Assembly (NCBI GenBank): GCA_017551515.1
Contig: JAFZLK010000052.1
Span: forward strand, 7,864 to 71,863
Direction: 5' to 3'
Length of the DNA: 64,000 nucleotides
DNA from: Bacteroidales bacterium
Lineage (GTDB): Bacteria; Bacteroidota; Bacteroidia; Bacteroidales; ML635J-15
Under the pieces are notes generated by a model. The model ran no database searches and was not told the origin of the DNA. It saw nothing but the letters and a program-made list of their open reading frames with translations. Positions 30,817 to 64,000 of this stretch are shown piece by piece. The translations under genes and the position numbers were made by a program. The first letter of the stretch is position 1. Every line of letters starts with the position of its first letter.

Positions 30817-30870
30817 ATATTAGGAAACATGTATAAACACATTTCCCAATTTATTGGCAGACGATAGCTT

Positions 30871-31125
30871 TTACTTTACTTCTGCTACGGTGAACTCGTA
30901 CGATTCGATTATCGGGTTTACGAGAACCTTGCTGCAGAATTCATCTATCTTCTTGCTTGCCTCTGCTTCGGATGCTGCTTCTATTTCAACATCTATGTGC
31001 TTGCCAATGCGGACATTGCGAAGAGTTTCGAATCCAGTCTTAACTGCGCTGTTCAATACAGCCTTTCCCTGTGGGTCCAACAATGCCTTAAGCGGCATAA
31101 CATTGATTTGAGCGTAAAATTTCAT
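30871..31125 (-). CDS. purS: Phosphoribosylformylglycinamidine synthase subunit PurS
   Basis: 84 aa. The sequence V.PLKALLDPQGKAV...G....VR.GK is typical of PurS. Confidence 0.85.
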   Translation of the reverse strand: MKFYAQINVMPLKALLDPQGKAVLNSAVKTGFETLRNVRIGKHIDVEIEAASEAEASKKIDEFCSKVLVNPIIESYEFTVAEVK

Positions 31126-31137
31126 TGTTATATTTTT

Positions 31138-31869: not shown

Positions 31870-31938
31870 ACCTTTTTTTTAAAATAAATAATAAGTTGTC
31901 GTTTAAATTCGTTTTCTTTGCATCGTAAAAATTGACTG

Positions 31939-33039
31939 ATGAAAACGACTGCAAAATTAGCATTATTTGTGTTATTGGCAACCGCTGTAAATTTTTTAAA
32001 TGCACAGGGTGTGTCGAAATACAGCAACGAGTTCCTGTCGATAGGCGTTGGCGCAAGGGCTTTGGGCATGGGAACGTCGGTGATTTCCTCCACCAACGAC
32101 ATTTCTGCAACATATTGGAACCCAGCCTCGCTTATAAACCTTGACAAGCAAATAGAAATAGGTGCAATGCACTCCGAATATTTTGCCGGCATTTCAAAAT
32201 ACGACTATGTAGGTGCTGGTTATAAGATTGACGACAAATCGGCTGTGGGACTTTCGATGGTGCGCTTCGGAGTAGATGATATTCCCAACACACTGAACCT
32301 TATAGATGCCAACGGAAACATAAACTACGACAACATTACCTCTTTTTCTATAGCCGACTATGCATTCATGGCTTCCTATTCGCGTAAACTTCCCGTTGAG
32401 GGACTTAGCGTTGGTGGAAATGTGAAGATTATCTACCGCAATGTTGGCGAGTTTGCACATGCTGTCGGCTTCGGACTTGATTTCGCTGCAAAATACGACT
32501 ACAAGGCATGGCGTTTCGGTGCAGTTCTTCGTGATGGAATTGGAACTTTCAACGCATGGAACTACAACCGCGAGTTACTCGAAGAAGTTTTCACCGAAAC
32601 TGGCAACGAAATTCCTGTTAATGGCGTTGAAGTTACCGTTCCTCGCCTAATGCTTGGCGCTGGTTATTTGTTTACGATAAAGGAAAAGTTCACTATTTAT
32701 CCCGAAATCGACCTTGCAATGACTTTCGATGGCAAGCGTAGCACTCTAATCCGTAGCAAGGCATTGAGCATTGACCCGACTTTCGGACTTGAACTCGGGT
32801 ATGGCGACTTGGTTTTCCTGCGTTGCGGATTCAACAATTTCCAGACGGTTCCGGACTTTGATGGCAAGAAAACTTTTTCGTGGCAACCTAACCTCGGCAT
32901 CGGCGTAAAATTCTACGGAGTACGAATAGACTATGCTTTCACCGATGTCGGAAACCAGAGCATTGCTTTGTATTCGCATGTTTTTTCGCTTAGCTATTGC
33001 TTCAACATAAAGAAAAAGGAATCGCACTCCAGATTGTAA
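31939..33039 (+). CDS. PorV/PorQ-family outer-membrane beta-barrel protein
   Basis: It has a signal peptide (LLATAVNFLNAQ) and a strong family motif, SNEFLSIGVGARALGMGTSVISSTNDISATYWNPASL. Its stop lies 3 nt before the ATG of the C25 gene. Confidence 0.7.
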   Translation: MKTTAKLALFVLLATAVNFLNAQGVSKYSNEFLSIGVGARALGMGTSVISSTNDISATYWNPASLINLDKQIEIGAMHSEYFAGISKYDYVGAGYKIDDKSAVGLSMVRFGVDDIPNTLNLIDANGNINYDNITSFSIADYAFMASYSRKLPVEGLSVGGNVKIIYRNVGEFAHAVGFGLDFAAKYDYKAWRFGAVLRDGIGTFNAWNYNRELLEEVFTETGNEIPVNGVEVTVPRLMLGAGYLFTIKEKFTIYPEIDLAMTFDGKRSTLIRSKALSIDPTFGLELGYGDLVFLRCGFNNFQTVPDFDGKKTFSWQPNLGIGVKFYGVRIDYAFTDVGNQSIALYSHVFSLSYCFNIKKKESHSRL

Positions 33040-33042
33040 ACC

Positions 33043-37986: not shown

Positions 37987-38079
37987 AAAAAGGTAATGGG
38001 CTTATTGTCTAAAAGTCGAATTCCATGCTTTAGCTGAGAATCAATAAATTAGGGAATGGTGGAACCTTCCCCTAATTAT

Positions 38080-41000: not shown

Positions 41001-43662
41001 TTCCTGTTGCCGAAAGGGTGATGTTGGCGTTTCTGCATCCGTTGGCTGGTGTTACCGAAGCAATCTCTGGAACGGAAACTTCTATTTGCTGGGTAGCAGT
41101 GCTATTGCCGATGGCATTTGTAGCGGTAAGTGTGATTGTGTATGTTCCGTTTGCAGTGTAGGTGTGTGTGGGTTCTGCTTCGGTAGAGGTTGTTCCATCC
41201 CCAAATGCCCAAAGGTAGGAGGTCGCGTGTTCAGATTCGTTGGTAATGCTTATGTTTCTTGTGCAGGATTCTGCGATAACTGCTGAAAATTCTGCTACAG
41301 GTTCGGGTTGGTAGCAACTTATTTCGGCTTCCCAACCAGTATTTACTGTTGAGGTGTTTGAGTAAAAGTAAATGGTAAGAGCACCATCGCTGTTTGTGGC
41401 TGTTACAACACCGTTTGTCCCTATCGAAGATGGGTTGGTTCCGCAATATTGTCCGATTTGCGTTGCCGATGTGCTTGTGCCGTCGTATATTGTGATATAG
41501 TTGTTGCAAGTTGTTGAACCCCAGTTTGTTGTCTGCTGTAATCCAAGTTGTGTGAATGTAAGTCTTAAATATGCGCCATCGGTGCTTGGATAGATTGTCT
41601 GCGTAACTCTGGCGTTGTTACCATAATTGCCATCGCTTCCTGGGTCTCTGTATGTGCCTGAACATGCGTAAATTGTTCCATCGCTCATGTTGATTACCGA
41701 AGTAACTTCAATGTATGCAGTCTTTGTTTCGGTATTGGAACCAAAGGCATTAGAAGCGACCAATGTAACTGAGTATAATCCTGATTCGTTGTATGTTACG
41801 GTTGGGTTCTGTTCATTTGATGTTGCTGGAGTTCCTCCTTCAAAAGTCCATTGCCACGATGTAGGCATATTTGTTGAAAGGTCGGTGAAAGTTACAGGAC
41901 TACTTATAGATACAGATGTTTCGGATGCTGAAAAGTCGGCTACTGGTGGTATTGCCTCATGAACTATGATTTGTTCTGTGGTGGATGTCGAGCATCCGTT
42001 TTCGCTTACAATAGAAAGTGTGACATTGTATGAGCCGGGAGTGTTGTAAGTTACGGTTGGATTTGCGGATGTGCTAGTTGCTGGCGAACCGCCCTCGAAA
42101 GTCCATGATGTCGAATTATTGCATCCAGTAGTATTGATAAATTGTATGCTTCTGCCTTCGTATGCTTCTGCAGGATTTGTAGTAAATGTCGGTTCTGGAC
42201 ATAGGCTTACATCCAAGCGTGTACTTGCCATATTCTGGGTTGTTACCGTTAATGTTTTTGGCAAATAGCCTTCCTTAGAGAAGGTTACGCTGTATGTGCC
42301 TGCATAAATCGGGCGTTGGTAGTCGCCGACTGGTGTTTTGGTGTAAACTTCCGAATTGTCGGTGTCGTGGTTGTTGACGAAAACCTTTACGCTGTCCAAA
42401 GGCTGGTTGGTACAAGCATCTGTAACAATGCCACGGAAACCGTATAAAGCCTGTTCTGTATAATTGAGCATTGCCTGCTTGTAGTATCCCCAGTATGCGT
42501 TAAGGTATTCTGTCCCTAGTTCCTTGGTGGTAGTGAATTCTACGGTTGTTTCCTTGATGTTCTTGTAGTAGTTCATATAATCTTGACGACCACCATCAAT
42601 AGAATACCATTCTGAGCCTTTTGTTACACCGTTTGATCCTGATACATTTGAAGGACCTGTGAATCTGCTGGAGTTGATTGCGTGTACAGTATCGACAAAC
42701 ATCCAAGAAATGTATTCCCACCAATCGTCATCTGCATTTGGACGGTCAACATGTGTCCATCCGTCCTCGTCCCACGGATAGTTCATGCATTCGTCTCCGC
42801 CGTGGCAGTTTGCCGACATTATGAAGTGGTGCTTGTTGGCGAAAGTGTACATCATCGTGATTTCTGGTTCGTCGGGATATTCTGCTGTATGATTAGGTCC
42901 ATCGGTAACGAACTTGAAGTTACGGTTAAGGTCAACTCCGTGTTGGTTGTATCTTCTTGCACTTTGTATGCTTGTGCCGTTGCTCGACTGGTAGAATGTA
43001 CCATCGGGGTTGGTGTTGGGCGATATGCAAATTTCCATGTTGTTTACAAGGTTGGTGACTTGCGGGTCGGTGCCGTAGTTTGTAAGCAGATGGTCGATAA
43101 GACGGATTAGGAAGTACCATCCCGAAGTTTCGTCACCATGCATAGTACTGCTCCACCAGAATTCAGGTTCGTCCTCGTCAACGCCAACATTATCGGAGAT
43201 TGTAATATTGACAATTGGTCGCTCATTTACAGAAAAACCTATTGTGTCGAGTTTGCATATTGATGGATAATTGGTTGCGTAGTTCTGCATCATTTGCAGA
43301 TATACAGCGTAGGTGGGGTAACGGTCCCAGTTTGCCATCTGTGCAACTGTGGTAGCCATGTTGAGTGCACGAGTCCGATTATAGTACTCATATACTGGCG
43401 CATATTCAATACCGTATGACTTGAATTGCTCATACTCTCTTCGGTTGGCGTATGCTACAACCATCGAATCATTAATCTTGTCGATTGAAATTATGCGCCC
43501 GAGTTCGCGTACTAGTTCACGATTGTTGTTATGTGGAAACCTAAACACTATTTCTCCACGATTTTCAAGAGTCTGCTCTATGAATTGAAGGTCGGATTTC
43601 GTCTGCCCTAAAACTGCCGATACTACTAGTATCCATGCAATTGCAATGATGACTTTTTTCAT
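38080..43662 (-). CDS. 1,860-aa T9SS-secreted M14 zinc carboxypeptidase with long PKD/CUB-like/Ig/Fn3-like extension
   Basis: It has a signal peptide and the M14 zinc-binding context WWSSTMHGDETSG. It also has a carboxypeptidase-regulatory-like domain, PKD modules, a CUB-like module and internal duplications. The C-terminus IDIYPNPANDILNI..IIGQVVYS..NGVYVVRIH fits a type-A CTD. Confidence 0.8.
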   Translation of the reverse strand: MKKVIIAIAWILVVSAVLGQTKSDLQFIEQTLENRGEIVFRFPHNNNRELVRELGRIISIDKINDSMVVAYANRREYEQFKSYGIEYAPVYEYYNRTRALNMATTVAQMANWDRYPTYAVYLQMMQNYATNYPSICKLDTIGFSVNERPIVNITISDNVGVDEDEPEFWWSSTMHGDETSGWYFLIRLIDHLLTNYGTDPQVTNLVNNMEICISPNTNPDGTFYQSSNGTSIQSARRYNQHGVDLNRNFKFVTDGPNHTAEYPDEPEITMMYTFANKHHFIMSANCHGGDECMNYPWDEDGWTHVDRPNADDDWWEYISWMFVDTVHAINSSRFTGPSNVSGSNGVTKGSEWYSIDGGRQDYMNYYKNIKETTVEFTTTKELGTEYLNAYWGYYKQAMLNYTEQALYGFRGIVTDACTNQPLDSVKVFVNNHDTDNSEVYTKTPVGDYQRPIYAGTYSVTFSKEGYLPKTLTVTTQNMASTRLDVSLCPEPTFTTNPAEAYEGRSIQFINTTGCNNSTSWTFEGGSPATSTSANPTVTYNTPGSYNVTLSIVSENGCSTSTTEQIIVHEAIPPVADFSASETSVSISSPVTFTDLSTNMPTSWQWTFEGGTPATSNEQNPTVTYNESGLYSVTLVASNAFGSNTETKTAYIEVTSVINMSDGTIYACSGTYRDPGSDGNYGNNARVTQTIYPSTDGAYLRLTFTQLGLQQTTNWGSTTCNNYITIYDGTSTSATQIGQYCGTNPSSIGTNGVVTATNSDGALTIYFYSNTSTVNTGWEAEISCYQPEPVAEFSAVIAESCTRNISITNESEHATSYLWAFGDGTTSTEAEPTHTYTANGTYTITLTATNAIGNSTATQQIEVSVPEIASVTPANGCRNANITLSATGSGTLHWFDSATDGTELGTGESYSANFAETTTLYVEAQQGSEQYYNVGVTDNTAATAYTNNGQNRGLTFTVSQNLTLVSIDVYCSQNNQSKTITISNSSNQQVYSQEHNLTSGLNTLTLNAELSAGTYNIYTNVQNTYRQTPSFPYTVDNVISITGQYATSSYSTYYYTFYNWVIKTGSICTSERTAVTATVIESGSINLGEPITQCGGTATLDAGSGFNSYNWSNGQHTQAITVSQSGTYTVTASNGACEVEGSVVVTINPVPSVAITTNGNTLTANATAGVGNYNYIWSTNEQTQSINVTADDNYCVTATDTNGCSASDCANIAMPEINISIADTENGSITGANSVNYNGNYTFTVIPDDCYEIGIVTVNGNEVILNANNSYTIQNVTTEQTINATFNRISYTITANAGNGGTINPIGNVNVNCGENKTFAIAANEGYIISDVLVDGQSVGSQSSFSFTNVDANHSISATFEVIPAGEIVIVVNTDPEGGSVSPTGAQTISEGNDFTFTVTPDNCYEIGSVTVNGTAVTLDANNSYTIENVTEPQNINVTFNPITYIITASAGNGGTITPSGDIEVNCGESKTFAIEANEGYEIADVTVDGQNVGAVENYTFSNVTENGHSIYASFNEIAIVPICYSVTNLTIEPNAYNTDGNLLSWTAAENADSYSVYRNGILVSTNTETIYFDIEGGQNIEYYVVTNCGPNNFSEPSETVVSPVTEQCNTISDLEVSVESYGNLISWTAAENAISYEVYRNGERIATETNTSSIDMQGQVGDSYYIITNCENGGSSNASETVTAEAEAICNTVTNLTAQVEPYGVVLSWNAAENATSYEIYRNGNWISTETNSSTIDLQGHEGNAYYIITNCANGSTSEASETVTAIVTGIDETENNIDIYPNPANDILNITSSEIISSVEIVNIIGQVVYSLDVNNDNAICNVRYLPNGVYVVRIHTSSTSSLQQTQGTVVVQRKFVKE
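38330..39110 (-). repeat. Three tandem 246-bp (82-codon) Fn3-like coding repeats
   Basis: The anchor encoding SWTAAENA recurs at 38519, 38765 and 39011, giving an exact 246-nt period. Confidence 0.75.
39120..40050 (-). repeat. Internal 462-bp (154-codon) tandem duplication (two Ig/B-repeat-like modules per unit)
   Basis: The CYEIG codon string lies at 39443-39456 and 39905-39918, exactly 462 nt apart. The protein units are about 60-70% identical by eye. Confidence 0.75.
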
Positions 43663-52318: not shown

Positions 52319-53548
52319 CTACCTCTCTACAAAAACCAAATAATACGCATCGTATGGGTCACCAACTCCAACGCTCGGCTGGTATAGAAATACCGCAACC
52401 TTCTTCGATGTCTGCTCATAGTACGACATAAACTCTTCCTGTCCGGACAATGTCTGCCAGATATAGCCCAAATCATTATCAGATTCGTCAACATCTTGGA
52501 CATAATGTCCATCAACATCTATGTAAGAAATTCTGTCTCTTGGGAAAGACAAACTATATTTCATCGTATATTCAGGCACGTATGTGTCTACATTTCCACC
52601 TTTTACGAAAGTGTCTGGAAAATTAAGGGCACCGCATCCGGCCCATATTATTGAACCATCCATAAGAAGATTATCGGTGTCATGATAGTAAAATTTAATG
52701 TAACCGAAATCGTGAGGAGACATGTAGTCTGCAAGGAAAGGAATTTCGTTTCCTTCGTTCTGCTTGTTTGTAACATTCATAGAGTAAAAACCTCCGTATT
52801 CAAACGTCATGTAATCGACCTTGGCAATAAGAATGTCCTTGTCCAAATATTCATCGGTGAGGTTTACGGTAGGGACTTCTGGAAGCGGATTGTTCACTCG
52901 TTCGTTGATAATCTGCATACATACCGACGGATTCCATTGTCCATAACTCAAATGCAAACTATATTTGTATGCTTGACTATCATTTGCTGAAAACGAAAAA
53001 CTAATATTATCAGAAGATGGGTCAACTGATTCCAATGCCTCCAAGATTTGTTCGGGTGTATCAACATACTGATATCCATTATTACCAATTTTCATAGAAT
53101 AACTTTCCCTGACCAGCAATGGATATGAACTGGATTGCAATATCTCTAAAAGCCATTTCTTAAAGATTGCCGACAATGTATCAATGTCGCTGCTTTCCAA
53201 TTTCATTTCTACATTCGGAACCCTATCGTCATATCCGAAATGAACAAACAAATATTTTGATATGCTGTCAACCCTTGTGTCTGTATATTTCGCACTAAGA
53301 TTGTTGTTGTATTCACATTCCTCGTATCCGTTTGTCGTCAAATATTCATTATATGCAGTAACTTCCATGCCAATCAACGACTTCAAAAACACAAAGTCTC
53401 CACCATCGGTTTCGTAATCCTGCAAGATTGTTCTTGAACCGCCAATTGGGTTTTCTTCAGGATCAAATTTAATGCGTTCGCATGAAGCAAAGGAAAACGC
53501 AAATGCGATTCCAATGAATATTACCGAAAGTTTCAAGTTAGTTTTCAT
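52319..53548 (-). CDS. Hypothetical lipoprotein (409 aa), no family recognised
   Basis: It has a lipobox (AFSFASC) and good coding character. It sits 79 nt downstream of the type-B CTD gene array. Confidence 0.5.
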   Translation of the reverse strand: MKTNLKLSVIFIGIAFAFSFASCERIKFDPEENPIGGSRTILQDYETDGGDFVFLKSLIGMEVTAYNEYLTTNGYEECEYNNNLSAKYTDTRVDSISKYLFVHFGYDDRVPNVEMKLESSDIDTLSAIFKKWLLEILQSSSYPLLVRESYSMKIGNNGYQYVDTPEQILEALESVDPSSDNISFSFSANDSQAYKYSLHLSYGQWNPSVCMQIINERVNNPLPEVPTVNLTDEYLDKDILIAKVDYMTFEYGGFYSMNVTNKQNEGNEIPFLADYMSPHDFGYIKFYYHDTDNLLMDGSIIWAGCGALNFPDTFVKGGNVDTYVPEYTMKYSLSFPRDRISYIDVDGHYVQDVDESDNDLGYIWQTLSGQEEFMSYYEQTSKKVAVFLYQPSVGVGDPYDAYYLVFVER

Positions 53549-53627: not shown

Positions 53628-56600
53628 TTATTTTATTAGCATAAGGTTCCCCTTCTTCGTTCTTATGCTACCATCGTACATTTCGGCTTCCACATAGTAG
53701 GAATAGGTGTCGATGTTCTGTACTTTGCCTTTAAGTCTGCCGTCCCAGCCTCGGTTAAGGTCATCGGAGAAGAAGACTTCTTCGCCCCAGCGGTTGAAAA
53801 TGCGGAACTGCAACAGCCGCTTTATGCCAAGTCCACGCACATATACAATGTTGTTGCCGTCACCTTCGCTGAGCGGAGTGAAAGCGCCCGGCACATCGAG
53901 CGAAAACTTCATTTCAACATCTATGTGTATGTCGAAACTCTTTTCGTAGCAACCAAGCGAATCGCTGAGCCAAACAATATAATTGGTAGTTGCGTTGGGG
54001 AAGAAAAACAAAGTGTCGCAACCGATGGAAATAACGCTGTCAAGAGGCAACCATCGGCAATTCAGGTCGGTTTCGGAAAGTATCACAGCGACAACGGTAT
54101 CGCCAATGTTTATGGATGCGTAATCGGGTTCTATCTCCGCTTCAACAGGCGCAATTACATCAATATGTACCGAATCGGTTGCCGAACATAAATGTTCTGT
54201 GTAAACATTGACATGGTATGTCGTGTTTTCGATTGGCGCTACCCTTTGGATGGGTCTGCTGTCGTTAATAGGCGCATCCCAGTAGTACGAAGCTCCGCCT
54301 ACAACAATAATGTCGGTTTCGTCTCCCAAGCATAATACGGTGTCCTTGTTTGTTAATGGGTGCGGACTTGGGAAAAGTACATATTCGTGCGAAACGCTGT
54401 CGTAGCAGTTGTGCTCGTTGGTTACGGCAAGCGAAACTACAAATGTAGAGTCGTTGTGTGATGGATTGGTCCAGTAAACAGGGACTTCCTCTTCCGATTC
54501 GTCAAGTCTGTGCCCGTTCTGGTACCATCTGAATTGTGCTTCTTCCGACGATTGGTTTACTAATGTCGCCGATAAAGGTTCGCACAAACCAGCATTAATC
54601 TCAACGCTATCGGCATATAGTCCGAAACGTGCGTCAACTTCGTAAACATATATCATTTCGGTTATGTCAATATTACATTCTCCACTTGTAAGACTCAGTA
54701 CTACAGGGAAATATCCTGATTGTGGAACATAATCGTAAGTATGCGTAACATTCGGCGTTGTATAGTTATATCCGCCTCCAACTACCCATTGGAACGACTG
54801 CACATTTTGGGCATTAAGCATACGGAAATTAACATTGTCGCCTGCACAAATTGCTGTATCGCTGATGTATATTTCGGCAGTTGGTCCACTTATCCATACA
54901 TTTGTATTTTTTGCCACACGGCAACCTGCTGGAGTTGTTATTTCGACTGATATTGTATAGTAACCTGGGGTATTGTAAAGGTATTCGGGATTCTCCACAT
55001 ACAGGTTGTCGCCGTTTCCCATGTTCCAGTGGAATAACGGATCTACGCCATCGGGCCAAGCAGTTGCCGAAACATCAAAGATGGGTTGGGCAGGGTAGCA
55101 ACTGAAATTTTGGTTTTGTGGCGAAAGGCTTGTGTTAAGACTTTCCACATACACGCCATTTTGATAATCGACTGCATCGGTACACCCGACACCACCGCTT
55201 ATATTAAGCGAAACAGAATACAAGCCCGGGGCAGAATAGCGGTGAGTAACAACAGGTCCGCTGTTATCCCATACCTCGCCGTCACCAAAGTCCCACGTGT
55301 AGCTGAAATCAGGATTTTCAACATTTGATGTAAATATAACCAAATCGGTACTACAAATGCTGTCGTCAAAATCCACTACAAGTTCTGGAATTGCTAATGC
55401 ATGCAAGTGATTTTCAAAAGATTGCTGGTCGTGGCAGCCATGTTTGGTAGTTACCATGTAGTATATCGAATATAAGCCAGTGTCGGCATATTCGTGCGAG
55501 ACGGGATTCCCTTGTATAGTTTCGTTGTGCCCGAAATTCCACTGCACATTGCGAATAGGGTCGTTTGTATTGGTGAGTATGCATTCGAATTCGACCGTAG
55601 TTGGTGCGCATACATTCTGGGGTGGAGGCATTATGGTCGATGTTGGGTCTACAACATATATCGGTTTTGTATAAATCGATATGCACTCGTCGTCTCCTTT
55701 TAGATATACGGTTACAGTATAGTCGCCTGGCTCTTCGAACCTATGTGGGTGCGATGTGTTAGAGGAAAATTCAAACCATTCGAGGTTCTCTACGGGCATA
55801 TCGTTAATTCCCCAGTTGTAGGCAATCCATTCATCCCCGCCATAGTCGACTTCAACCGATGAGTATTGTCCCATGCATACCGTATCGGGATCCAAATGCC
55901 AAATAAAATCTCTCATCGGGAGCTCAACTGTAACATAATCTCTGAATGTACACCCAGAATCATCATTATATCCAATAATGTTGCATTCATACACACCATA
56001 TCCTGGGAGGGAGACATGAATGGTTGATGCAGTGGAGTGCGATTCTGAGTATACTTGGGTGCCTTGCCCTCCGCCACTACTCCAAGTACTACCAGTGATA
56101 GACCAGTCCCAGTATTGCGCTCCTTGATTATTGGTAATATAGAATGTGTAGTCGAATGGAGTTGTGCATGGCGGAGATTGATATGAGACATGCAAAATAG
56201 GAGGCAGAACATAAACTCTGTCCTGATAGTATGAGTCTGATTCGCAATTCAGGTATTCTGTCATTATGCCGACATTATTCCAACCAGTATGAACATCAAA
56301 CATAAATCCGTTATACATGTTATTGGCAGGTCCATGTTCTCCATCTACCAGAATAGTAAAGTCTATGCTATCGGAACTTTCGTACATTGAGTTGTATAGA
56401 AGATACAAATCCTGCGGGCATACCGTATCGCCGTTTATACGGATGTGGTTTGTGTCGGTCGCCCAGAAATCCTCGGGTGGAATCTGTATGCCGACTTCAA
56501 TAGTATCGCATCTGTTCGAATCGAATTTGTGCAAGGTGCGAGTATCGGTGCATCCGTTGCGGTCGGTTATCGTAAGTGTAGGAATGTAAGCTCCCGGTAC

Positions 56601-58082
56601 AGTATAATTGTGGCTAACAGGTGTATAAGTGGTGTGAAGTGTGGTCCCGTCACCGAAATCCCAGAAGTAGTCAACGATTTCGCTGTTTTCGGTATAAACA
56701 ACATAATGGTTAAACTGAATGTTTTTCGGAACGCAGTCACCGCAAGAATTTGATTCTATGTTGGCTTCGGGATGGTTAACGATTATAGTCGGACCTTCAA
56801 ACGTGTCGAAACATCCGGCACTTGTATAAGCTGTCATTGATGTGGGGTAAACACCATTCTCTGTGTATCTTTTGTTTGGATTTTCGGCTGACCCTAGGGT
56901 CTCGTCCCCAAAATCGTATCGGTACGAAACAGCATCGCCTGTAGATGTGTTTGTAAAATGTGCCGTAAATGGATAGTCGCACGAAAAAGTCTCGTCAACT
57001 GCAAATGAAGCTTCGACATGCTGTACGGTTACCTCAAAAGTTTCGGAGCGCTCGCATGGACCGCCTGGGTCGGCGGTAAATGTTCCTGTGTATGTGCCTG
57101 CATTTTGATAGGCGTGATATGCAGTTTGGTCGTTCGAAACTGGTGTGCCATCGCCGAAATCCCATTGGCAATTGGTTCGAGGCATATGGCTATGGAAGGC
57201 AGTAGATACTCTTTTGCAAACAACCGATGGCGTATCAAAGCGCGGTACTAATTGTGCAATGGAAATCATGTCTGGATAAAACATCGTGGTGGAGCATCCG
57301 TAGCTGTCGGTGGCAGTTACACTTACATCGAAATGTCCATGCGAAGTATAGGTGTGACTTGGATTGTCGCCTGTGCCAGTCTGTCCGTCACCAAAATTCC
57401 AAGTCAAAGTGCATGCTGTGGAAACATTTGGTGCGGTTGTGACTTCCGAATGGAAAGGCACTTGCAATGGAGGTTCGCACCACTGTTCAATTTCTGGTGT
57501 TACCGAAAGCGATGGTGACGACGACACATTTACAATCTGCGCATAATGCTCGTCAATGCAACCGTTGTTATCGACAATTCGCAACGAAACAGTCAGAAGT
57601 CCCGAATTAAGGTAGGTATGCGATACATATTGACCTGTAGATGTTTGTCCGTCGCCCCAGTACCACAGCCAACTGTTAATCGGTGCATCGCCTTGAATTG
57701 ACATGTCGTTTAGCGTGAAGTCGAATGGGGTACAGCCCGAAACGGGTGTTTCGTTGAATCGAGCATGTGGAGATTGGAAAATAACTATTTCGTGGTTGGC
57801 GGTTGCTGTCTGCCCGCTACTTGTAACAGTCACCGATATGGTATATGTCCCGCCTTCGAGATAAGAGAATGTTGGGGTAGCCAGTTGCGATACATCACCG
57901 TTGCCCGACGACCACGAATAAGCCACATTAGGTCCTGCTCCAGTAACATTACAGCCAAAAGTAAGGTTTTGCGGTGAGCAACCACTGAACGAATCGCCAA
58001 TGATGGTAACGGAAAGCTGCGCCTTTGCGGCAAATGCCGAAAGCAAAACCAATATTGTTAATATGCAGACTTTCCTAAACAT
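53628..58082 (-). CDS. 1,484-aa PKD-repeat protein with T9SS type-B (gliding-motility-associated) C-terminal domain, paralogue 1
   Basis: It has a signal peptide and at least eight W.FGDG-type PKD modules. The C-terminus is GAFTPLSEGDGNN..FRIFNRWGEEVFF..WDG..DTYSYYVEAEMYDGSIRTKKGNLMLIK. Confidence 0.8.
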   Translation of the reverse strand: MFRKVCILTILVLLSAFAAKAQLSVTIIGDSFSGCSPQNLTFGCNVTGAGPNVAYSWSSGNGDVSQLATPTFSYLEGGTYTISVTVTSSGQTATANHEIVIFQSPHARFNETPVSGCTPFDFTLNDMSIQGDAPINSWLWYWGDGQTSTGQYVSHTYLNSGLLTVSLRIVDNNGCIDEHYAQIVNVSSSPSLSVTPEIEQWCEPPLQVPFHSEVTTAPNVSTACTLTWNFGDGQTGTGDNPSHTYTSHGHFDVSVTATDSYGCSTTMFYPDMISIAQLVPRFDTPSVVCKRVSTAFHSHMPRTNCQWDFGDGTPVSNDQTAYHAYQNAGTYTGTFTADPGGPCERSETFEVTVQHVEASFAVDETFSCDYPFTAHFTNTSTGDAVSYRYDFGDETLGSAENPNKRYTENGVYPTSMTAYTSAGCFDTFEGPTIIVNHPEANIESNSCGDCVPKNIQFNHYVVYTENSEIVDYFWDFGDGTTLHTTYTPVSHNYTVPGAYIPTLTITDRNGCTDTRTLHKFDSNRCDTIEVGIQIPPEDFWATDTNHIRINGDTVCPQDLYLLYNSMYESSDSIDFTILVDGEHGPANNMYNGFMFDVHTGWNNVGIMTEYLNCESDSYYQDRVYVLPPILHVSYQSPPCTTPFDYTFYITNNQGAQYWDWSITGSTWSSGGGQGTQVYSESHSTASTIHVSLPGYGVYECNIIGYNDDSGCTFRDYVTVELPMRDFIWHLDPDTVCMGQYSSVEVDYGGDEWIAYNWGINDMPVENLEWFEFSSNTSHPHRFEEPGDYTVTVYLKGDDECISIYTKPIYVVDPTSTIMPPPQNVCAPTTVEFECILTNTNDPIRNVQWNFGHNETIQGNPVSHEYADTGLYSIYYMVTTKHGCHDQQSFENHLHALAIPELVVDFDDSICSTDLVIFTSNVENPDFSYTWDFGDGEVWDNSGPVVTHRYSAPGLYSVSLNISGGVGCTDAVDYQNGVYVESLNTSLSPQNQNFSCYPAQPIFDVSATAWPDGVDPLFHWNMGNGDNLYVENPEYLYNTPGYYTISVEITTPAGCRVAKNTNVWISGPTAEIYISDTAICAGDNVNFRMLNAQNVQSFQWVVGGGYNYTTPNVTHTYDYVPQSGYFPVVLSLTSGECNIDITEMIYVYEVDARFGLYADSVEINAGLCEPLSATLVNQSSEEAQFRWYQNGHRLDESEEEVPVYWTNPSHNDSTFVVSLAVTNEHNCYDSVSHEYVLFPSPHPLTNKDTVLCLGDETDIIVVGGASYYWDAPINDSRPIQRVAPIENTTYHVNVYTEHLCSATDSVHIDVIAPVEAEIEPDYASINIGDTVVAVILSETDLNCRWLPLDSVISIGCDTLFFFPNATTNYIVWLSDSLGCYEKSFDIHIDVEMKFSLDVPGAFTPLSEGDGNNIVYVRGLGIKRLLQFRIFNRWGEEVFFSDDLNRGWDGRLKGKVQNIDTYSYYVEAEMYDGSIRTKKGNLMLIK

Positions 58083-58151
58083 CCCTATATTTTTATATTC
58101 GTTTTCGTATTTTTACCAAAATAATTCATTTTTATGCCAATTATTTCATTT

Positions 58152-58180
58152 GTAGGGGTTGGTTTCAAACCGCCCCCTAC
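58152..58180 (-). terminator. Hairpin between paralogue 2 and paralogue 1
   Basis: GTAGGGGTTGG-tttcaaa-CCGCCCCCTAC begins 6 nt downstream of the paralogue-2 stop. No clear U-tract follows. Confidence 0.45.
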
Positions 58181-58185
58181 AAATT

Positions 58186-61100
58186 TTATTTCAACAACAT
58201 TATATTCCCCTTCTTCGTCCTTATGCTGCCATCGTACATTTCTGCTTCCACATAATAGGAATATGTGTCCATGTTTTGCACTATTCCGCTGATTGTTCCG
58301 TCCCAGCCGGTATGCAGGTCGTTGGTAAAGAAAACCTCTTCGCCCCAGCGGTTGTAAATACGGAACTGGCGCAACTCCTTTATGCCAAGCCCTCGCACAT
58401 AAACTACGCTATTTTCGTCATCGCTCAATGGAGTGAACGCACCTGGGACATCAAGCGTATATTTAATGTCAACATCGACATGAATGTTGATATTTGTTTC
58501 GTAGCAGCCGAGCGTATCTTTCAGGATAAGTGTGAAATCGGTATTTTCGAGCGGATAAAGCAACAAAGTGTCGCAATTTCCTGCAAAAGCGTATTCCGCA
58601 GGCGAAATGTAGCAGTCAAGCGCTTCCATGTCGGAAAATACCAATGTCATAGCCGTATCACCTATATTTATGGTAAACGACTGCTCGTCAGTTTCTGCCT
58701 CAAATGGCTGAAACACATCAATTGCGACCGAATCCGTAGTCATGCACATTTTTTCATTAAAAGCATCAACATAGTAAATGGTTGCCTCGGTTGGAGAAAT
58801 AATTTGACTTTGTGTGCTGTTGCCGATAGGAGGATGCCAGTAGTAGGAATTTCCGCCATATACAGAAATGTGAGCCTCACTGCCTTTGCAAATCAAAGTG
58901 TCGCCAATGGTATATACTTCGGGATTTTTGTAAACCAGATATTCATGCGAAATGCTGTCGATACAGCCAAGCGAATCGGTAATTGCAAGTGAAACCACAT
59001 ATAACGAGTCCGTCTGCGTGGAAGAATTTGTCCATATCACTGTGCCTTCTGAGTATGTTTCACCGTTCACATACCAGCGTTGTTCCACGCCGTTGGTTCC
59101 TGAATATGCTAAATCTCCTTCCAATGGAGAACAAGTACCTTCGAGGATAGCATTTCCGCTCAAATCCAAAAGGCTAAAGTCAGAATTTATCCTATACACA
59201 TAAACCTGTTCGGTCAAGTCAATCATGCAGTTGCCATTTCGTATCGAAAGCGTCACCGGGAAATATCCCGATTCGGGAACATAGCCGTACTGGTGCGTAA
59301 CTTCCTCTGTATAATAGTTGTATCCGCCACCTACAACCCACATGAAACTTTCAACATCAACTGCATCTGTCATTGAGAAATGCACTTCGCCGCCTGCGCA
59401 AACTATAGTGTCGCTCAACGAAATGTTTGCCTCGGGACCAGTAATCGCCACACTATGCGACATTGAGGCGCTGCAACCGCTGTATGTTGTTACTTCAAGA
59501 TTAATAGTGTAGTTGCCAGGTGCTGTATATAAGTATTGCGGATTTGCCACATGTAAAATGTCACCGTTGCCCATGTCCCAGTGGTAGCGCAGGTTGACAT
59601 AATCGGGTTCAGTAACTATCGCAGTATTTATTGTCGGGCTTACAGGATAGCAGTTGTATGCCGAACTGTCTATGGTAAAATCTGCCGAGACAATTCTTTC
59701 AATGTTTATGCAATCTTCGCATGGAAGAGTATCGCTACACACTGCTCCGCCATCGCCACGTACCGATACAATATGTGTAAACGAATAGATGCCCGCCTGT
59801 TCGTAAAGGTGTGTAAGTGTGCTGTTTGTTCCCGAAATCACAGTGCCGTCACCAAAATCCCATTCGTGCCAAATGAAATTATCTGACTCGTTCGATACAA
59901 ATGTCTGTATTGTGCCAAGACAAACGTTGTAACTAAAATCTACATAGGCGTATGGGAAATCAAGGACTTTCACCCTATTGCGGAATGTTTCAGAATACTG
60001 GCAGCCGTGCCAAGTCATAATGCTTAAGGAAACATCGTAAATGCCTGCTTCTTCGAAAGTATGGGTTACATTTTCGCCCGATACATTTTCAGTGCCGTCG
60101 CCGAAGTTCCATGTCGCAGAGTAAATTGCATCGTCGGTGTTGGTGATATTGTGAAATTCGAATGTGGCTGGATTGCAACCTACGACAAGATTTGTCGGTG
60201 ATATTGTGGAATGTGGGTCAACTACATACAACTGCTTGGTAAATACCGAAATGCATCCATCGAACTGGCGGGCGTAAGCAATTACTTCGTAGTTGCCTCC
60301 GCTTTCGTATGTGTAGCGTGAGTCGGTGATTCCGTTGATTTGAATCCATTCGAGTGCATTGATTGGCAAACCTCTGCCTTCCCAGTCGAAAGCAACTTCG
60401 GCAAAGGCTGGTGCGTTAAGAACTACTGCAGTAAGCCTGTTCCCAAGACACAATGTGTCGGTTGAAATTTCCCAGTTAAATATAGGCGGTCTAATGGCGC
60501 AAACGATTTCCTGCACGAATTCGCAATCCGATCCATCATTATGTGCGGTAAGTTTACAATGGTAGTTGCCGTAGTCGGGAAATACAAACGAAATCGAATC
60601 GGCGGTTGAATGATTGACATTCATAAGAATGTTGTTGTTATCGGTGTTCCATATCAACCATTCCCAGTATTCCGCGCCAAGATTTTCGGTAATTTTGAAC
60701 GAATAAACAAAGGGCGCGTTGCAGTCGGAATACGAAGCAAGATGTACGATTGGCGGTTTCACATAAACGCTGTCCCAGAGATATACTGACGACAGGCAGT
60801 TACGGTATTCAACCGTGAATCCCACCTTGTTCCAGCCGGTGTCAACCTTGAATGAATAAGGAGTGTATTCGGCTCCTGTATTAACATCCCAGTTCTTACC
60901 TGCAGAATTTATTACGAAGAAGTAGTTGTAGTCGGCGGAACTTCCGCTCATCGAATTGTATAGATACACTACATCCGTTGGACAAATAGTATCGCCAGGA
61001 ATGTAATCGTGCATATCATTTGTTACTCCGAATTGTTCTGGTGAAACTGGAGTGCCTGTAATTATGCTTGCCAGCGGTCTGTCATCGAGTATGCTAGTGG

Positions 61101-62661
61101 CGGTACAGCCGGAAGTATCGGTAATCGTAAGTGTTGGGGGGAAGATGCCAAATTCGGAATATTCATGTAGTACCGATGATGTTGTAGTATGGGTAGATGT
61201 GCCATCACCGAAATCCCAAAAGAAATCCACAACTGCCGAATTGCTTGTGTGTTCTGGGTCATTGTAAAGTCCAACTGTTGCAGGTACGCAGTCGCCTGCC
61301 GTAGTGGAATGAAGTGATGCGTCGGGCTGGTTGACAACAATTTCCGTTCCTGTATATCTTGATACGCATCCGCCTGGGGATGTTACTGTTAGCGTAGGTG
61401 TAAATCTGCCGTTCTGCGAATACGAATGCATCGTAATCCCATCAAAGCCAATGTAGCTGTCATCAAAATTGTATGAATAAGTAAGGTTTTCGCCGATAGA
61501 GGTGCTTATAAACCTCACTTCGAAAGGGTAGGTGCATGAAAACAGGTCCTCGGGTTCGGTGCGGAACGATGCATGAACGTCAACAACATTGACATTAAAA
61601 ACCTGCGTTTGCCTGCATGGTCCATTGGGGTCAATAGTGAATGTCACTGAATAGTTTCCCTCCTGCGAATAAGAGTGGCTTGCCTCTGTTCCCGACTGTA
61701 CAGGTGTTCCGTCGCCAAAGTTCCAGTAGCAGGTAATGTCATCGTCAACATCGCTGCGGAAAAGAAATGGTATATTTAGGCACATTTCGGCAGGAACTGT
61801 GCATGTTGGTGTTAGTGTTCCTATTACTACCATGTTGTTTTTGCGCACTACCGACTGGCAACCATACGAATCAACCACAGTTAGCGATACATTATAGCTG
61901 CCAGTATTGTCGTATGTATGCGATGGATTGTCCTCGTTGCTTTCTGAGCCATCGCCAAAATCCCATGTTGCCGTGTAGGGTCCGCCAAGTCCTACATCGG
62001 TGGATATTTCCGATGAGAAATTGACCTCGTGCGGAGCCACGCACCATTGAGCATCGTTGGCAGAAATAGACACGTTTGGTCGCTTCGATAGCGTCAGCAT
62101 CTGCGAGTGGTATTCATCGCGACAACCGTTGGCATCGGTTACCTCGAGCGACACCGTGAATATTCCAGGCGATGTGTATGTATGTGCCCTGTTGCGTCCT
62201 TGAGCCGAAACGCCATCACCGAAATACCATAGCCAGCTTGTAATTTCTGCATCGCCTTCGGTAGCACTGCTTTTGAACAAATAGCCTCTTGAGACGCAAC
62301 CAACAATGGAACTGTCGTTGAACGATGCTGTAGGTCCGTTGAATACTACAATTTCGTGGCTGTCGGTGGCTGTCTGTCCGCCACTTTCTATTGTAACGGA
62401 AATTGTGTATCGTCCTGGTGAAAGATAGGAAAATGTAGGTTCTGCAAGTACCGACATATCACCGTTTCCCGATGACCACGAATACGACACTTCGTCTGTA
62501 GCTCCGCTCACATTGCACCCAAAAGCGAGAATTTGTGGTGCACAGCCTTCGAAACTGCCGGTTATCGAAACCGACAATTGTGCTACCGATGTAAAGTGTA
62601 ACAGTAAGGCAACGAGTAATAGTGGTATGTATTTTAGTATCTTGAGAATATCTCTTTTCAT
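58186..62661 (-). CDS. 1,491-aa PKD-repeat protein with T9SS type-B C-terminal domain, paralogue 2
   Basis: It is collinear with 53628-58082 along its whole length. The C-terminus is GAFTPLSDDENS..FRIYNRWGEEVFF..WDG..DTYSYYVEAEMYDGSIRTKKGNIMLLK. Confidence 0.8.
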   Translation of the reverse strand: MKRDILKILKYIPLLLVALLLHFTSVAQLSVSITGSFEGCAPQILAFGCNVSGATDEVSYSWSSGNGDMSVLAEPTFSYLSPGRYTISVTIESGGQTATDSHEIVVFNGPTASFNDSSIVGCVSRGYLFKSSATEGDAEITSWLWYFGDGVSAQGRNRAHTYTSPGIFTVSLEVTDANGCRDEYHSQMLTLSKRPNVSISANDAQWCVAPHEVNFSSEISTDVGLGGPYTATWDFGDGSESNEDNPSHTYDNTGSYNVSLTVVDSYGCQSVVRKNNMVVIGTLTPTCTVPAEMCLNIPFLFRSDVDDDITCYWNFGDGTPVQSGTEASHSYSQEGNYSVTFTIDPNGPCRQTQVFNVNVVDVHASFRTEPEDLFSCTYPFEVRFISTSIGENLTYSYNFDDSYIGFDGITMHSYSQNGRFTPTLTVTSPGGCVSRYTGTEIVVNQPDASLHSTTAGDCVPATVGLYNDPEHTSNSAVVDFFWDFGDGTSTHTTTSSVLHEYSEFGIFPPTLTITDTSGCTATSILDDRPLASIITGTPVSPEQFGVTNDMHDYIPGDTICPTDVVYLYNSMSGSSADYNYFFVINSAGKNWDVNTGAEYTPYSFKVDTGWNKVGFTVEYRNCLSSVYLWDSVYVKPPIVHLASYSDCNAPFVYSFKITENLGAEYWEWLIWNTDNNNILMNVNHSTADSISFVFPDYGNYHCKLTAHNDGSDCEFVQEIVCAIRPPIFNWEISTDTLCLGNRLTAVVLNAPAFAEVAFDWEGRGLPINALEWIQINGITDSRYTYESGGNYEVIAYARQFDGCISVFTKQLYVVDPHSTISPTNLVVGCNPATFEFHNITNTDDAIYSATWNFGDGTENVSGENVTHTFEEAGIYDVSLSIMTWHGCQYSETFRNRVKVLDFPYAYVDFSYNVCLGTIQTFVSNESDNFIWHEWDFGDGTVISGTNSTLTHLYEQAGIYSFTHIVSVRGDGGAVCSDTLPCEDCINIERIVSADFTIDSSAYNCYPVSPTINTAIVTEPDYVNLRYHWDMGNGDILHVANPQYLYTAPGNYTINLEVTTYSGCSASMSHSVAITGPEANISLSDTIVCAGGEVHFSMTDAVDVESFMWVVGGGYNYYTEEVTHQYGYVPESGYFPVTLSIRNGNCMIDLTEQVYVYRINSDFSLLDLSGNAILEGTCSPLEGDLAYSGTNGVEQRWYVNGETYSEGTVIWTNSSTQTDSLYVVSLAITDSLGCIDSISHEYLVYKNPEVYTIGDTLICKGSEAHISVYGGNSYYWHPPIGNSTQSQIISPTEATIYYVDAFNEKMCMTTDSVAIDVFQPFEAETDEQSFTINIGDTAMTLVFSDMEALDCYISPAEYAFAGNCDTLLLYPLENTDFTLILKDTLGCYETNINIHVDVDIKYTLDVPGAFTPLSDDENSVVYVRGLGIKELRQFRIYNRWGEEVFFTNDLHTGWDGTISGIVQNMDTYSYYVEAEMYDGSIRTKKGNIMLLK

Positions 62662-62684
62662 GTCACGATATTTTACAATTCATA

Positions 62685-62726
62685 ATATTATGACAATTAA
62701 AAATACATTTTCGTTGCCTGAAGAAA
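62685..62726 (-). promoter_or_regulatory. Conserved ~41-nt upstream motif (copy 2), overlapping a perfect 12-bp hairpin (62701-62734)
   Basis: The hairpin is AAATACATTTTC-gttgcctgaa-GAAAATGTATTT. The motif aligns with 13415-13455 (about 33/41). Confidence 0.5.
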
Positions 62727-62814
62727 ATGTATTTAACTGTAATTTAACATAATTTTAAGAGATGGGGGTGTTGTTCTGCTAGACATCCTTTTTTGAATTT
62801 AAGTATAGACGCAA

Positions 62815-63121
62815 TTCGTTGAGCCTCAGTGGTTTCAAATAATATGAAATCCAGAAACAGCGCAGCCATTCAAACCTAGAAACAGCGTAGCGTATAAACG
62901 CCGAAGCCGTAGAAACTTAGAAACAGCGTAGCGTATAAACGCCGTAGGCATAGAAACGTGAAACCTTCAAACGGCGTAGCCATTCATTCGTCAACAGACC
63001 CTGAAACAAGTTCAGGGTGACATTAGGGAGAGTGCCTAGAAATGGGCGACAGCCCACTGAACGGCAAAGCCCTCAACGAAGTTAACCCAGAAACTTATAA
63101 ACTGGCGCAAGCCCACACTGC
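62815..63121. repeat. Mosaic intergenic repeat block (GAAAC heptads, 27-nt perfect direct repeat, hairpin module, 28-nt shared module)
   Basis: TAGAAACAGCGTAGCGTATAAACGCCG occurs at 62877-62903 and 62918-62944. The hairpin lies at 62998-63018. The stretch 63058-63085 is the reverse complement of 6116-6143 (27/28). Confidence 0.85.
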
Positions 63122-64000
63122 CTATCTTATGAGCATTATGTTTCCTTTTTTGCTTTGTACGCTTCCGTCGAACATTTCTGCTTCAACATAATAAGAATAT
63201 GTATCGCTGTTCTGCACCTTTCCGTTTACTGTTCCGTCCCAGCCTGTATGCAGGTCGTCGGTAAAGAATACTTCTTCGCCCCAGCGGTTGTAAATGCGGA
63301 ATTGCAATAGTTGTTTAATGCCAAGTCCTCGTGCATAGACTATATTATTGCCGTCGTTTTCGCTAAGAGGTGTGAAAGCTCCAGGTACATCAAGTGTAAA
63401 TATCTTTTCAACATCAATATGTATGTCGAACTTGTGGTCGGGGCAGAAAGTAGTATCCTTCATAACAAGCACATAGTCGGTGCTTTCATCGGGGAAGAAT
63501 ACTATTGTGTCGCAACCGCTCATAGTGAGGTTTTCCTCAGGTGTAATATAGCATTCGATGGCATTGTTGTCGTAGGTGATTAAAGCCATAGCAGTATCGC
63601 CCATATTTATCTTGAAATATTCGTCCGACAATGATACTTCGTATGTTGGAATTACAATCACAGTTATTGAATCGGCGATTGAACACCTGTGTTCAGTGTA
63701 GGCTTCAACATGGTAAACCGTTGTTTCTTCGGGTATAACACTTTGGTTAGGAAGACTGTCGTCGATTGGGGTGTCCCAATAGTAAGAATATGCATCCATT
63801 GCCGACATATTTACCGTATCGCCGTAGCATATGGTAGTGTCGTTGCTTACTCTAAGTGTAGGCATATGGTAAACATAATACTGGTGCGAAACGCTGTCGG
63901 TGCAACCAAGTGTATCGGTGGCAATAAGCTTAACGGTGAACAGTGAGTCAACCTGCAATGAATTGTTCTGCCAATTTACATTTTCTACAGTCTGCTGGTT
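63122..64000 (-). CDS. Type-B CTD PKD-family protein, paralogue 3 (C-terminal part only; the gene continues beyond the right edge)
   Basis: The frame stays open from 63958 to nt 64000 (..NQQTVENVNWQNNS-LQVDS..), and the sequence aligns with the equivalent region of paralogues 1 and 2. The C-terminus is GAFTPLSENDGNN..FRIYNRWGEEVFF..KKGNIMLIR. Confidence 0.75.
   Translation of the reverse strand, partial: NQQTVENVNWQNNSLQVDSLFTVKLIATDTLGCTDSVSHQYYVYHMPTLRVSNDTTICYGDTVNMSAMDAYSYYWDTPIDDSLPNQSVIPEETTVYHVEAYTEHRCSIADSITVIVIPTYEVSLSDEYFKINMGDTAMALITYDNNAIECYITPEENLTMSGCDTIVFFPDESTDYVLVMKDTTFCPDHKFDIHIDVEKIFTLDVPGAFTPLSENDGNNIVYARGLGIKQLLQFRIYNRWGEEVFFTDDLHTGWDGTVNGKVQNSDTYSYYVEAEMFDGSVQSKKGNIMLIR

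Follow-up and report, generated by a model that had tools for sequence, protein, structure and literature searches.

In an uncultured Bacteroidales bacterium of the rumen, three genes in a row code for similar surface proteins, and together with two genes on their flank they very probably form a type IX secretion system (T9SS) module of type-B cargo, carrier and anchor in which the cargo gene is triplicated. The window (the whole 64,000-nt stretch of DNA that was analysed, C57:7864-71863) holds most of the cargo array, which runs up to its right edge. Because genes for a dedicated carrier and a PorE-like anchor lie just outside, the array fits the published type-B cargo model, and the locus is one more ordinary case of a T9SS module already in the literature. 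The preliminary description had reported an array lacking any PorP/SprF partner; that absence is only apparent and results from where the window ends.

The cargo array and its sorting domains

The three genes follow one another on the minus strand, collinear as first described. Paralogue A (53628..58082) is an ORF of 1484 aa and paralogue B (58186..62661) one of 1491 aa, while paralogue C (63122..64000) is represented in the window by its C-terminal 292 aa, its frame open at the edge. The complete gene C of the contig codes for 1491 aa (C57:70985-75460, or L028:1122-5597) and starts 3.6 kb past nt 64000, at an extrapolated window coordinate of 67597. Pfam searches and fold models give all three proteins one domain order: a signal peptide ending AQ|LSV, six PKD domains, a middle segment of ~220–250 aa folding as tandem FN3/Ig-like sandwiches, six further PKD domains, ~160 aa of Ig-like fold and the C-terminal sorting domain. 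The PKD domains total ~12 per paralogue, with a PKD_4 match in the Pfam search of A at E=3.5e-107, and the modelled middle of B (aa 513-775, pLDDT 82) matches tandem FN3 structures. Since the proteins are composed solely of beta-sandwich domains, they are probably rod-like, non-enzymatic adhesins. The common order from signal peptide to C-terminus, originally read from the sequence, is borne out by Pfam, the domain map and the fold models; the shared blocks GAFTPLS, NRWGEEVFF, DTYSYYVEAEM[YF]DGS and KKGN[IL]ML[IL][KR] are all found in the sequences, and the estimate by eye that about half of the residues are identical agrees with the computed 44–51% (A/B 44.6%, A/C 44.3%, B/C 51.0%).

The assignment of the C-terminal domains (CTDs) to type B holds. 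PF13585 (CHU_C) scores 33.6, 38.7 and 37.3 bits on A, B and C against a cut-off of 27. TIGR04131, with a cut-off of 35 bits, is marginal: the full-length proteins score 31.0, 35.3 and 34.8 bits—a closeness to the threshold that we counted against the module reading—and a six-frame genome search gives 35.7, 40.5 and 40.0 bits. The canonical first motif FTPNGDG.ND is absent from all three CTDs, which carry FTPLS(E/D).D.N(N/S) instead, while the 18 other type-B domains of the genome mostly retain PNGDG.ND. Judged by this motif, the FTPLSE.DGNN domains of the array are a variant type-B subclass and still members of the type. They are mutually 77–80% identical and only 18–35% identical to the 18 others, which fits one carrier common to A, B and C. 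Constraint within each gene is also highest in the sorting domain, where windowed dN/dS is 0.01–0.05, and the sorting domains of the array form a distinct, strongly constrained class.

Does the array represent a diversified surface or adhesion function, as the preliminary description suggested? A set of diverged paralogues is certainly present, and in the cargo tree A, B and C each fall in an orthologous clade of their own (SH-aLRT 99–100%). Ongoing diversification finds no such backing in the orthologue dN/dS of 0.09–0.13 overall (0.13 for A and 0.13 for B), ratios that are rough at an orthologue dS of 0.8–1.2, near saturation. Between the paralogues dS is saturated (pS 0.74–0.76) and dN/dS unusable, for which reason only the orthologue values are used. 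The paralogues diverged long ago, and purifying selection acts on each of them.

Both spacers within the array are structured. In the B-A spacer (58083..58185, minus strand) the stop codon of B is followed directly by a strong stem-loop (-21.5 kcal/mol, z -4.6), and a motif scan found no TAnnTTTG box in this spacer. The C-B spacer (62662..63121, minus strand, 460 nt) is made of short repeats dispersed through the genome, including 2.5 copies of a 41-nt unit at 62864-62964; dozens of repeat copies occur on many contigs. It contains a hairpin 24–65 nt upstream of the B ATG (z -4.1), and an Rfam scan of the 460 nt returned no family. Scanning for sigma-70 promoters and terminators turned up no more matches than in shuffled sequences; as the consensus used is also ill-suited to Bacteroidota, TAnnTTTG was taken instead. 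Single matches to TAnnTTTG are themselves weak evidence, because the box is frequent in this genome (6e-4 per nt per strand).

Carrier and anchor genes beyond the window edge

A six-frame search of the whole genome yields no PF11751 match within the window, which confirms the initial impression that no PorP/SprF ORF is encoded there. Just past the edge, a gene for a PorP/SprF-like carrier of 335 aa lies on the plus strand (C57:75685-76692, or L028:5822-6829), scoring 176 bits for TIGR03519 (cut-off 90.55) and 140.3 bits for PF11751 (cut-off 22.3). It starts 3.8 kb past nt 64000 and is divergent from gene C, the two starts being separated by a spacer of 224 bp. Because a PorP/SprF-family gene thus adjoins gene C, neither the lack of a partner nor export through another adaptor, both entertained earlier, is supported. 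The further suggestion of one distal PorP/SprF for the whole array was right as to the single carrier and wrong as to the distance, and the finding that the preliminary description had itself named as refuting it, a carrier gene just beyond the right edge in the same operon, is in essence made, the gene being adjacent but divergent and hence outside the operon. The position of the carrier on the strand opposite to the cargo, unlike the textbook layout of a downstream gene in the same operon, was counted against the module reading; the gene directly downstream of the array encodes not a carrier but a non-barrel lipoprotein.

The anchor gene (L028:6831-8996, plus strand) begins 1 nt after the carrier gene, a gap which suggests that the two are probably translationally coupled. 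Its 721-aa product has TPR matches and an OmpA domain (PF00691, 71.8 bits), and scores 266.8 bits for NF052230 PorE (cut-off 600) and 298.4 bits for NF053607 (cut-off 620). With both equivalog cut-offs missed, we class the protein as PorE-like in architecture only, and its score well under the PorE equivalog cut-off was likewise counted against the module reading. The genome has ~10 PorE-like genes. A missing lipobox was rejected as a mark separating the PorE-like partner from the core PorE, none being obvious in 10 of 10 PorE-like ORFs.

The arrangement of cargo, PorP and PorE-like genes is conserved far beyond this genome, in its genus and in distant Bacteroidota. In every same-genus genome with both genes on one contig (G002, G004, G006, G008, G009, G011, G012, G015, G016, G017 and G018), the orthologous carrier gene neighbours the first cargo gene and is divergent to it, and the same adjacency occurs in other families (G028 and G030). 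Divergent layouts with full-length homologous cargo are found in ~17 public loci, among them Saprospiraceae, Flavobacteriales and Sphingobacteriales MAGs, in which the identity of the carrier goes down to ~30%. Carrier and cargo genes stay adjacent over family and order boundaries, while carrier identity falls from 92% to ~30%. Cargo copies number one, two or three per genome, and the adjacent carrier is always single. In its own genome the carrier has no second close paralogue, the next best sequences being 29% and 28% identical.

How would such a module work? A type-B cargo is known to depend on its cognate PorP/SprF-like shuttle, a single shuttle has been found to serve three of them, and closely related sorting domains show crosstalk (PMC12618676); for modules with an added PorE-like gene, static complexes anchored to the wall have been proposed (PMC9143113, PMC12618676). 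From this work on Flavobacterium johnsoniae and Porphyromonas gingivalis we infer the binding of CTDs to the carrier, its sharing, the anchoring to peptidoglycan and the adhesive function. A, B and C would be exported by Sec and then pass the outer membrane through the T9SS translocon SprA, after which the single dedicated PorP/SprF-like barrel would collect their variant type-B CTDs. The PorE-like protein, with its TPR, beta-propeller and OmpA_C parts, would tie the carrier–cargo complex to peptidoglycan, so that the adhesins would be held at fixed surface positions instead of being moved along a gliding track. The host encodes T9SS parts above their cut-offs, namely SprA (2653.9 bits), PorV (453.7 bits) and PorE (613.5 bits).

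Alternative partners and modes of display

Could the adjacent carrier serve another substrate, with A, B and C carried by a distal orphan PorP/SprF (encoded on C34, C61 or C90)? The genome offers room for this, with six PorP/SprF genes, four of them without a type-B gene on the same contig, and in F. johnsoniae the orphan shuttle Fjoh_1677 serves several unlinked cargos (PMC12618676). The choice of carrier in this genome is not always set by adjacency, as follows from the 17 of 21 type-B ORFs without a PorP within 10 kb, and the adjacent carrier gene does not share the orientation of the array. Against these points, carriers of this lineage stay next to this cargo family over the whole range of carrier identity given above. 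Furthermore, the carrier gene is followed by the PorE-like gene, one for a Nudix protein and one for a type-A CTD protein, leaving no other candidate cargo on its flank, and the PorPs of C77 and C23 look like core components because GldK/PorK-like genes adjoin them. We therefore regard a distal carrier as improbable.

Slightly less probable still is that the 409-aa lipoprotein encoded directly downstream of A (52319..53548, minus strand) acts as a functional adaptor or partner of the array. Wherever the gene is present, it lies directly downstream of a cargo paralogue: after both A-like and B-like genes in G003, as two tandem copies after a B-like gene in G010, after a B-like gene in G018, and between two cargo paralogues in locus L037. 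This constancy is offset by its distribution, for it is found in only 4 of the 18 same-genus genomes searched, where the cargo and PorP module is nearly universal, and its linkage to the array is confined to the subclade with several cargo copies. It also has its own promoter-like TATCTTTG box at -34. The protein gave no Pfam or NCBIfam match even at E=10; its homologues bear PF27110, and Cys23 is invariant. Its AF2 model (pLDDT 77) is mixed alpha/beta, which rules out a membrane barrel, and finds no PDB match with TM above 0.3. Judged by these features, we take the lipoprotein to be the product of an accessory gene; it could work alongside the adhesins in an accessory role, but as modelled it cannot stand in for an outer-membrane carrier.

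That A, B and C are instead mobile SprB-like gliding adhesins, whose carrier is disulfide-bonded to a GldK/PorK-based track, seems the least probable of these explanations: the sorting domain is of the 'gliding-associated' type-B class, and the carrier has a conserved cysteine four residues from its C-terminus, as SprF has C-tail cysteines that bond to GldK (PMC12635249), but the single cysteine of the carrier tail (...ITLPCDRF) is not the SprF-type Cys-x-Cys motif of that study, a PorE-like anchor gene of the kind tied in the literature to static cargos directly follows the carrier, the host is a rumen Bacteroidales, and no GldJ exceeds its cut-off, the best TIGR03524 match (390.7 against 458.2 bits) being an ORF that adjoins a PorP as porK does.

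Known systems and a candidate cell-wall tether

The cargo/carrier/anchor module proposed here is closest to the F. johnsoniae operon Fjoh_3952-3951-3950, which, as far as later papers relate it, likewise combines a putative adhesin with a type-B CTD, an SprF-like barrel and, directly after it, a PorE-like OmpA-domain gene, and has been modelled as a static, cell-wall-anchored adhesin (Kulkarni et al. 2019, via PMC12618676 and PMC9143113). Compared with the operon as summarized there, the cargo genes of our locus are on the opposite strand, divergent from the carrier–anchor pair; there are three diverged cargos per carrier with the variant FTPLSE.DGNN motif. Fjoh_1677 also provides one PorP/SprF-like carrier for several cargos with similar CTDs (PMC12618676), but its substrates are three unlinked 'orphans' that have no relationship beyond the CTD and go to the gliding machinery, whereas here tandem full-length paralogues stand beside a carrier gene that is accompanied by a PorE-like gene. 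In the P. gingivalis PG1035-PorP-PorE complex a type-B cargo sits on the PorP barrel, itself tied to peptidoglycan via PorE (PMC9143113). PorP and PorE are single core T9SS components in that species; here carrier and anchor are dedicated paralogues, and the PorE-like protein, at 267 bits, falls short of the 600 that the equivalog model requires. The SprB-SprF pair of F. johnsoniae likewise joins a type-B cargo to a PorP/SprF-family carrier with a C-tail cysteine. In contrast to it, our locus has no SprB repeats, no sprC or sprD genes, a single tail cysteine and a PorE-like gene, and there is no evidence of gliding genes.

The tail cysteine (Cys332 of the carrier) may have a counterpart in the anchor, at Cys454 and Cys455 of the PorE-like protein. 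Among adjacent carrier/PorE-like pairs in public loci, 42 combine the tail cysteine with a vicinal Cys-Cys insertion in the PorE-like protein, two have neither, one has Cys-Cys only and none has the tail cysteine with an adjacent partner lacking Cys-Cys, though these counts come from related sequences and amount to only ~3 independent contrasts. Within the genome studied, the insertion is confined to the two PorE-like genes that follow genes for Cys-tailed PorP-like proteins (C57 and C61) and absent from the other eight; a PorE-like neighbour is missing beside many Cys-tailed carriers. We tentatively propose that the carrier tail cysteine is disulfide-bonded to the Cys-Cys of its anchor, a possibility that the covariation raises without making it the likelier outcome. 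The cysteine could instead be bonded to PorK/GldK, and a link of the carrier to the PorK/GldK ring, in place of the PorE-like protein or besides it, may exist; we keep this option because the carrier shares a C-tail cysteine with SprF. The literature searched holds no statement of a disulfide between a carrier and a PorE-like protein. If true, the bond would parallel the published SprF-GldK and PorG-PorK disulfides, here joining a carrier to the cell wall, and the covariation of the cysteines offers a testable lead on the tethering of static type-B cargos.

A layout in which the cargo genes diverge from a carrier–anchor pair is thus conserved over several orders, and annotation rules that look for carriers only downstream will wrongly label such cargos as orphans. 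With one to three diverged full-length cargos beside a single carrier, and with nearly identical CTDs on these cargos, the family provides a clean comparative system for the residues that determine carrier specificity.

Three adhesin-like paralogues and their probable divergent carrier

Three consecutive minus-strand ORFs fill the right end of the window: paralogue A (53628-58082, 1484 aa), paralogue B (58186-62661, 1491 aa) and paralogue C, which occupies the sequence from 63122 with its frame open at the window edge and whose whole gene (1491 aa) spans C57:70985-75460 on the contig, corresponding to 1122-5597 of L028, a public locus covering the same region. The preliminary description placed these genes correctly, and all the sequence blocks it quoted are present in the three proteins. 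The array is also complete at exactly three copies, with no fourth after gene C. The window corresponds to C57:7864-71863 in a genome of 119 contigs and 3.55 Mb. Pairwise identities are 44.6% (A/B), 44.3% (A/C) and 51.0% (B/C). Pfam detects 9-10 PKD_4 stretches in each protein, and iterating a PKD profile over all three proteins resolves a layout that is in register throughout, with six PKD domains, a gap of 220-250 aa, six further PKD domains and a tail of ~257 aa. The gap in B (residues 513-775) is modelled as beta-sandwich domains (mean pLDDT 82) that are matched by tandem FN3 structures at a Foldseek probability of 1.0. The PKD map and this FN3-like model together define the paralogues as strings of ~16 beta-sandwich domains without a catalytic domain; as modelled, their build is that of a surface fibre or adhesin. 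Their earlier type-B assignment holds, with CHU_C above its cut-off in all three, but is marginal against TIGR04131 (cut-off 35): A, B and C score 31.0, 35.3 and 34.8 bits as complete proteins, rising to 35.7, 40.5 and 40.0 bits when the six-frame translation is searched.

Searched in all six frames with PF11751, the whole genome yields six PorP/SprF genes, none of them inside the window. The reported lack of a partner is thus true of the window itself, but a PorP/SprF-like carrier gene lies 3.8 kb past nt 64000, at C57:75685-76692 (+; L028:5822-6829), with scores of 176 bits for TIGR03519 (cut-off 90.55) and 140 bits for PF11751. Its start and the ATG of C are 224 bp apart, and the two genes are transcribed divergently. 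Because the partner adjoins the array just beyond the edge, the proposal of a distal carrier or another adaptor is refuted in its essential part by the criterion that the preliminary description itself set, the missing partner being an edge artefact; the carrier is adjacent but divergent, and hence does not share an operon with the cargos. The carrier is followed, 1 nt past its stop codon, by an ORF for a PorE-like anchor of 721 aa (L028:6831-8996, +; carrier and anchor together C57:75685-78859), which combines TPR matches with an OmpA_C domain (71.8 bits) and partially matches PorE (267 bits vs 600) and the CHU_0125 OmpA family (298 vs 620). Next come a Nudix hydrolase gene, CoA pyrophosphatase-like, and, 1.5 kb downstream of the PorE-like gene, a gene for a 1276-aa protein with Listeria-Bacteroides repeats and a type-A T9SS sorting domain (L028:10460-14290, +).

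The genome encodes 21 type-B ORFs, and the array is one of few cargo sets with a partner, since 17 of these ORFs (on C2, where one is 4319 aa long, C25, C38, C44, C49, C85, C87, C108 and other contigs) are without a PorP/SprF gene in the surrounding 10 kb; only A, B, C and one ORF on C90 lie near one. For four of the six PorP/SprF genes, the contig bears no type-B gene. Those on C77 and C23 resemble core components and are neighbours of GldK/PorK-like genes, and on C61 a PorE-like gene comes after an orphan carrier. SprA, PorV and PorE of the T9SS core each score over cut-off in the genome, and the best match to GldJ falls below it. Two PorV/PorQ-family outer-membrane barrels, at 1376-2527 (+; PorV_fam subfamily only, 144.9 bits vs 90) and 31939-33039 (+; PorV2 equivalog, 490.9 bits vs 325), are also encoded inside the window, at a distance of 20-50 kb from the array and with no linkage to it.

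Conservation and history of the pairing

Is the adjacent carrier the cognate carrier of A, B and C? Comparison with 30 related genomes, 18 of the same genus, argues that it is. The cargo family is found in 16 of the 18, and an orthologous carrier also in 16; the two genomes that lack this carrier hold only distant paralogues of ~30% identity. Wherever cargo and carrier share a contig in the genus they are divergent neighbours, as in G002 (C18: cargo 28752-33203(-), carrier 33334-34344(+)), G008 (C4: cargo 6510-10970(-), carrier 11104-12108(+)) and G012 (C30: carrier 37458-38447(-), cargo 38684-43051(+)), and likewise in G004, G006, G009, G011, G015, G016, G017 and G018; the layout extends to two other families of the order (G028, G030). 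Across the public loci the PorE-like gene is nearly always next after the carrier. In about 17 of them, some from Saprospiraceae, Flavobacteriales and Sphingobacteriales MAGs, a full-length cargo homologue stands upstream of the carrier on the opposite strand. Other lineages (L050-L054, L080, L104) follow the textbook arrangement, cargo then carrier then PorE-like gene on a single strand. Relatives among public contigs come from RUG, RGIG, red deer, yak and buffalo MAGs, the organism being an uncultured rumen Bacteroidales. Two loci with a Bacteroidota-type PorP/PorE-like module bear Proteobacteria labels, L046 (JBLIBC010000001.1, Glaciecola sp.) and L084 (Bordetella parapertussis), probably through binning contamination or mislabelling.

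In a maximum-likelihood tree built from 26 full-length cargos, the A, B and C types each form an orthologous clade (SH-aLRT 99-100%), with A branching first and B and C as sisters. Most of the genus has one copy, 33-39% identical to B; L035-L038 have two, of A and B type, and our genome, L030, L039, G003 and G018 have three. The flanking carrier remains single whether there are one, two or three cargos, and our genome holds no second close carrier paralogue, the next best being 29% and 28% identical. Divergence among the paralogues is saturated at synonymous sites, and the duplications are old. The preliminary description saw in the array the diversification of a surface or adhesion function. 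Orthologue dN/dS is 0.13, 0.13 and 0.09 for A, B and C, rough values given a dS of 0.8-1.2, and every 100-codon window is at or below 0.41; we see no trace in the three genes of diversifying selection still under way or of recent gene conversion.

A 409-aa lipoprotein with an invariant lipobox cysteine (Cys23) is encoded directly downstream of the array (52319-53548, -). Its homologues carry PF27110, and its AF2 model is mixed alpha/beta and has no structural match in the PDB; since the model is not a barrel, the protein cannot be an outer-membrane carrier. The gene occurs in four of the 18 same-genus genomes searched, all in the subclade whose members have more than one cargo copy, always immediately downstream of a PKD/type-B paralogue, sometimes after two paralogues or in tandem, and is duplicated in G003 and G010. 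It may encode an accessory partner of the adhesins.

The intergenic sequences offer fainter indications. Possible TAnnTTTG boxes precede three of the genes, at 27 nt for C, 100 nt for the carrier and 34 nt for the lipoprotein, and the 103-nt B-A spacer has none; candidate stem-loops follow the B stop codon (-21.5 kcal/mol, z -4.6) and precede the B ATG by 24-65 nt (z -4.1). The 460-nt C-B spacer (62662-63121) consists of short repeat modules dispersed over dozens of contigs of the genome, with a 41-nt unit in 2.5 copies (62864-62964) and a CACCCTGAA...TTCAGGGT hairpin near 62998-63022, and matches no Rfam family.

Cysteines of carrier and anchor

The carrier ends in ...ITLPCDRF, with a conserved cysteine at -4, and 79 of 84 PorP-like relatives retrieved have a cysteine in their last eight residues. 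The PorE-like partner has a vicinal Cys-Cys at 454-455, kept in 96% of 49 partners. Among adjacent carrier/PorE-like pairs, 42 have both features, two neither, one Cys-Cys only and none the tail cysteine only; in our genome the Cys-Cys insertion is confined to two of ten PorE-like proteins, those following Cys-tailed carriers (C57, C61). This co-occurrence, albeit with few independent contrasts, suggests a possible disulfide between carrier tail and anchor, an idea of which we found no statement in the literature searched. SprF forms its bond with GldK by means of a C-terminal Cys-x-Cys (PMC12635249). The tail cysteine of the carrier could instead bond PorK/GldK, and no PorE-like gene is linked to many of the Cys-tailed carriers.

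A probable shared carrier for three cargos

The last 100 residues of A, B and C are mutually 77-80% identical, against only 18-35% identity with the genome's other 18 type-B domains, and their first motif is the variant FTPLSE.DGNN, not FTPNGDG.ND. Constraint within each gene is strongest over the sorting domain (dN/dS 0.01-0.05). Type-B cargos of F. johnsoniae require cognate PorP/SprF-like shuttles; three cargos share the shuttle Fjoh_1677, and a shuttle also accepts non-cognate cargo with significant homology to its own, Fjoh_3952 being secreted with Fjoh_1646 (PMC12618676). The likeness of the three sorting domains and the single carrier agree with these findings. Modules with a PorE-like gene, such as Fjoh_3952-3951-3950, have been proposed to form static, cell-wall-anchored complexes, and no PorE-like gene is linked to mobile adhesins of the SprB kind (PMC9143113, PMC12618676). 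The locus belongs to this already known kind of module, and we consider it quite probable that A, B and C would be adhesins displayed statically on the cell surface, using in common one dedicated carrier and one peptidoglycan-binding anchor.
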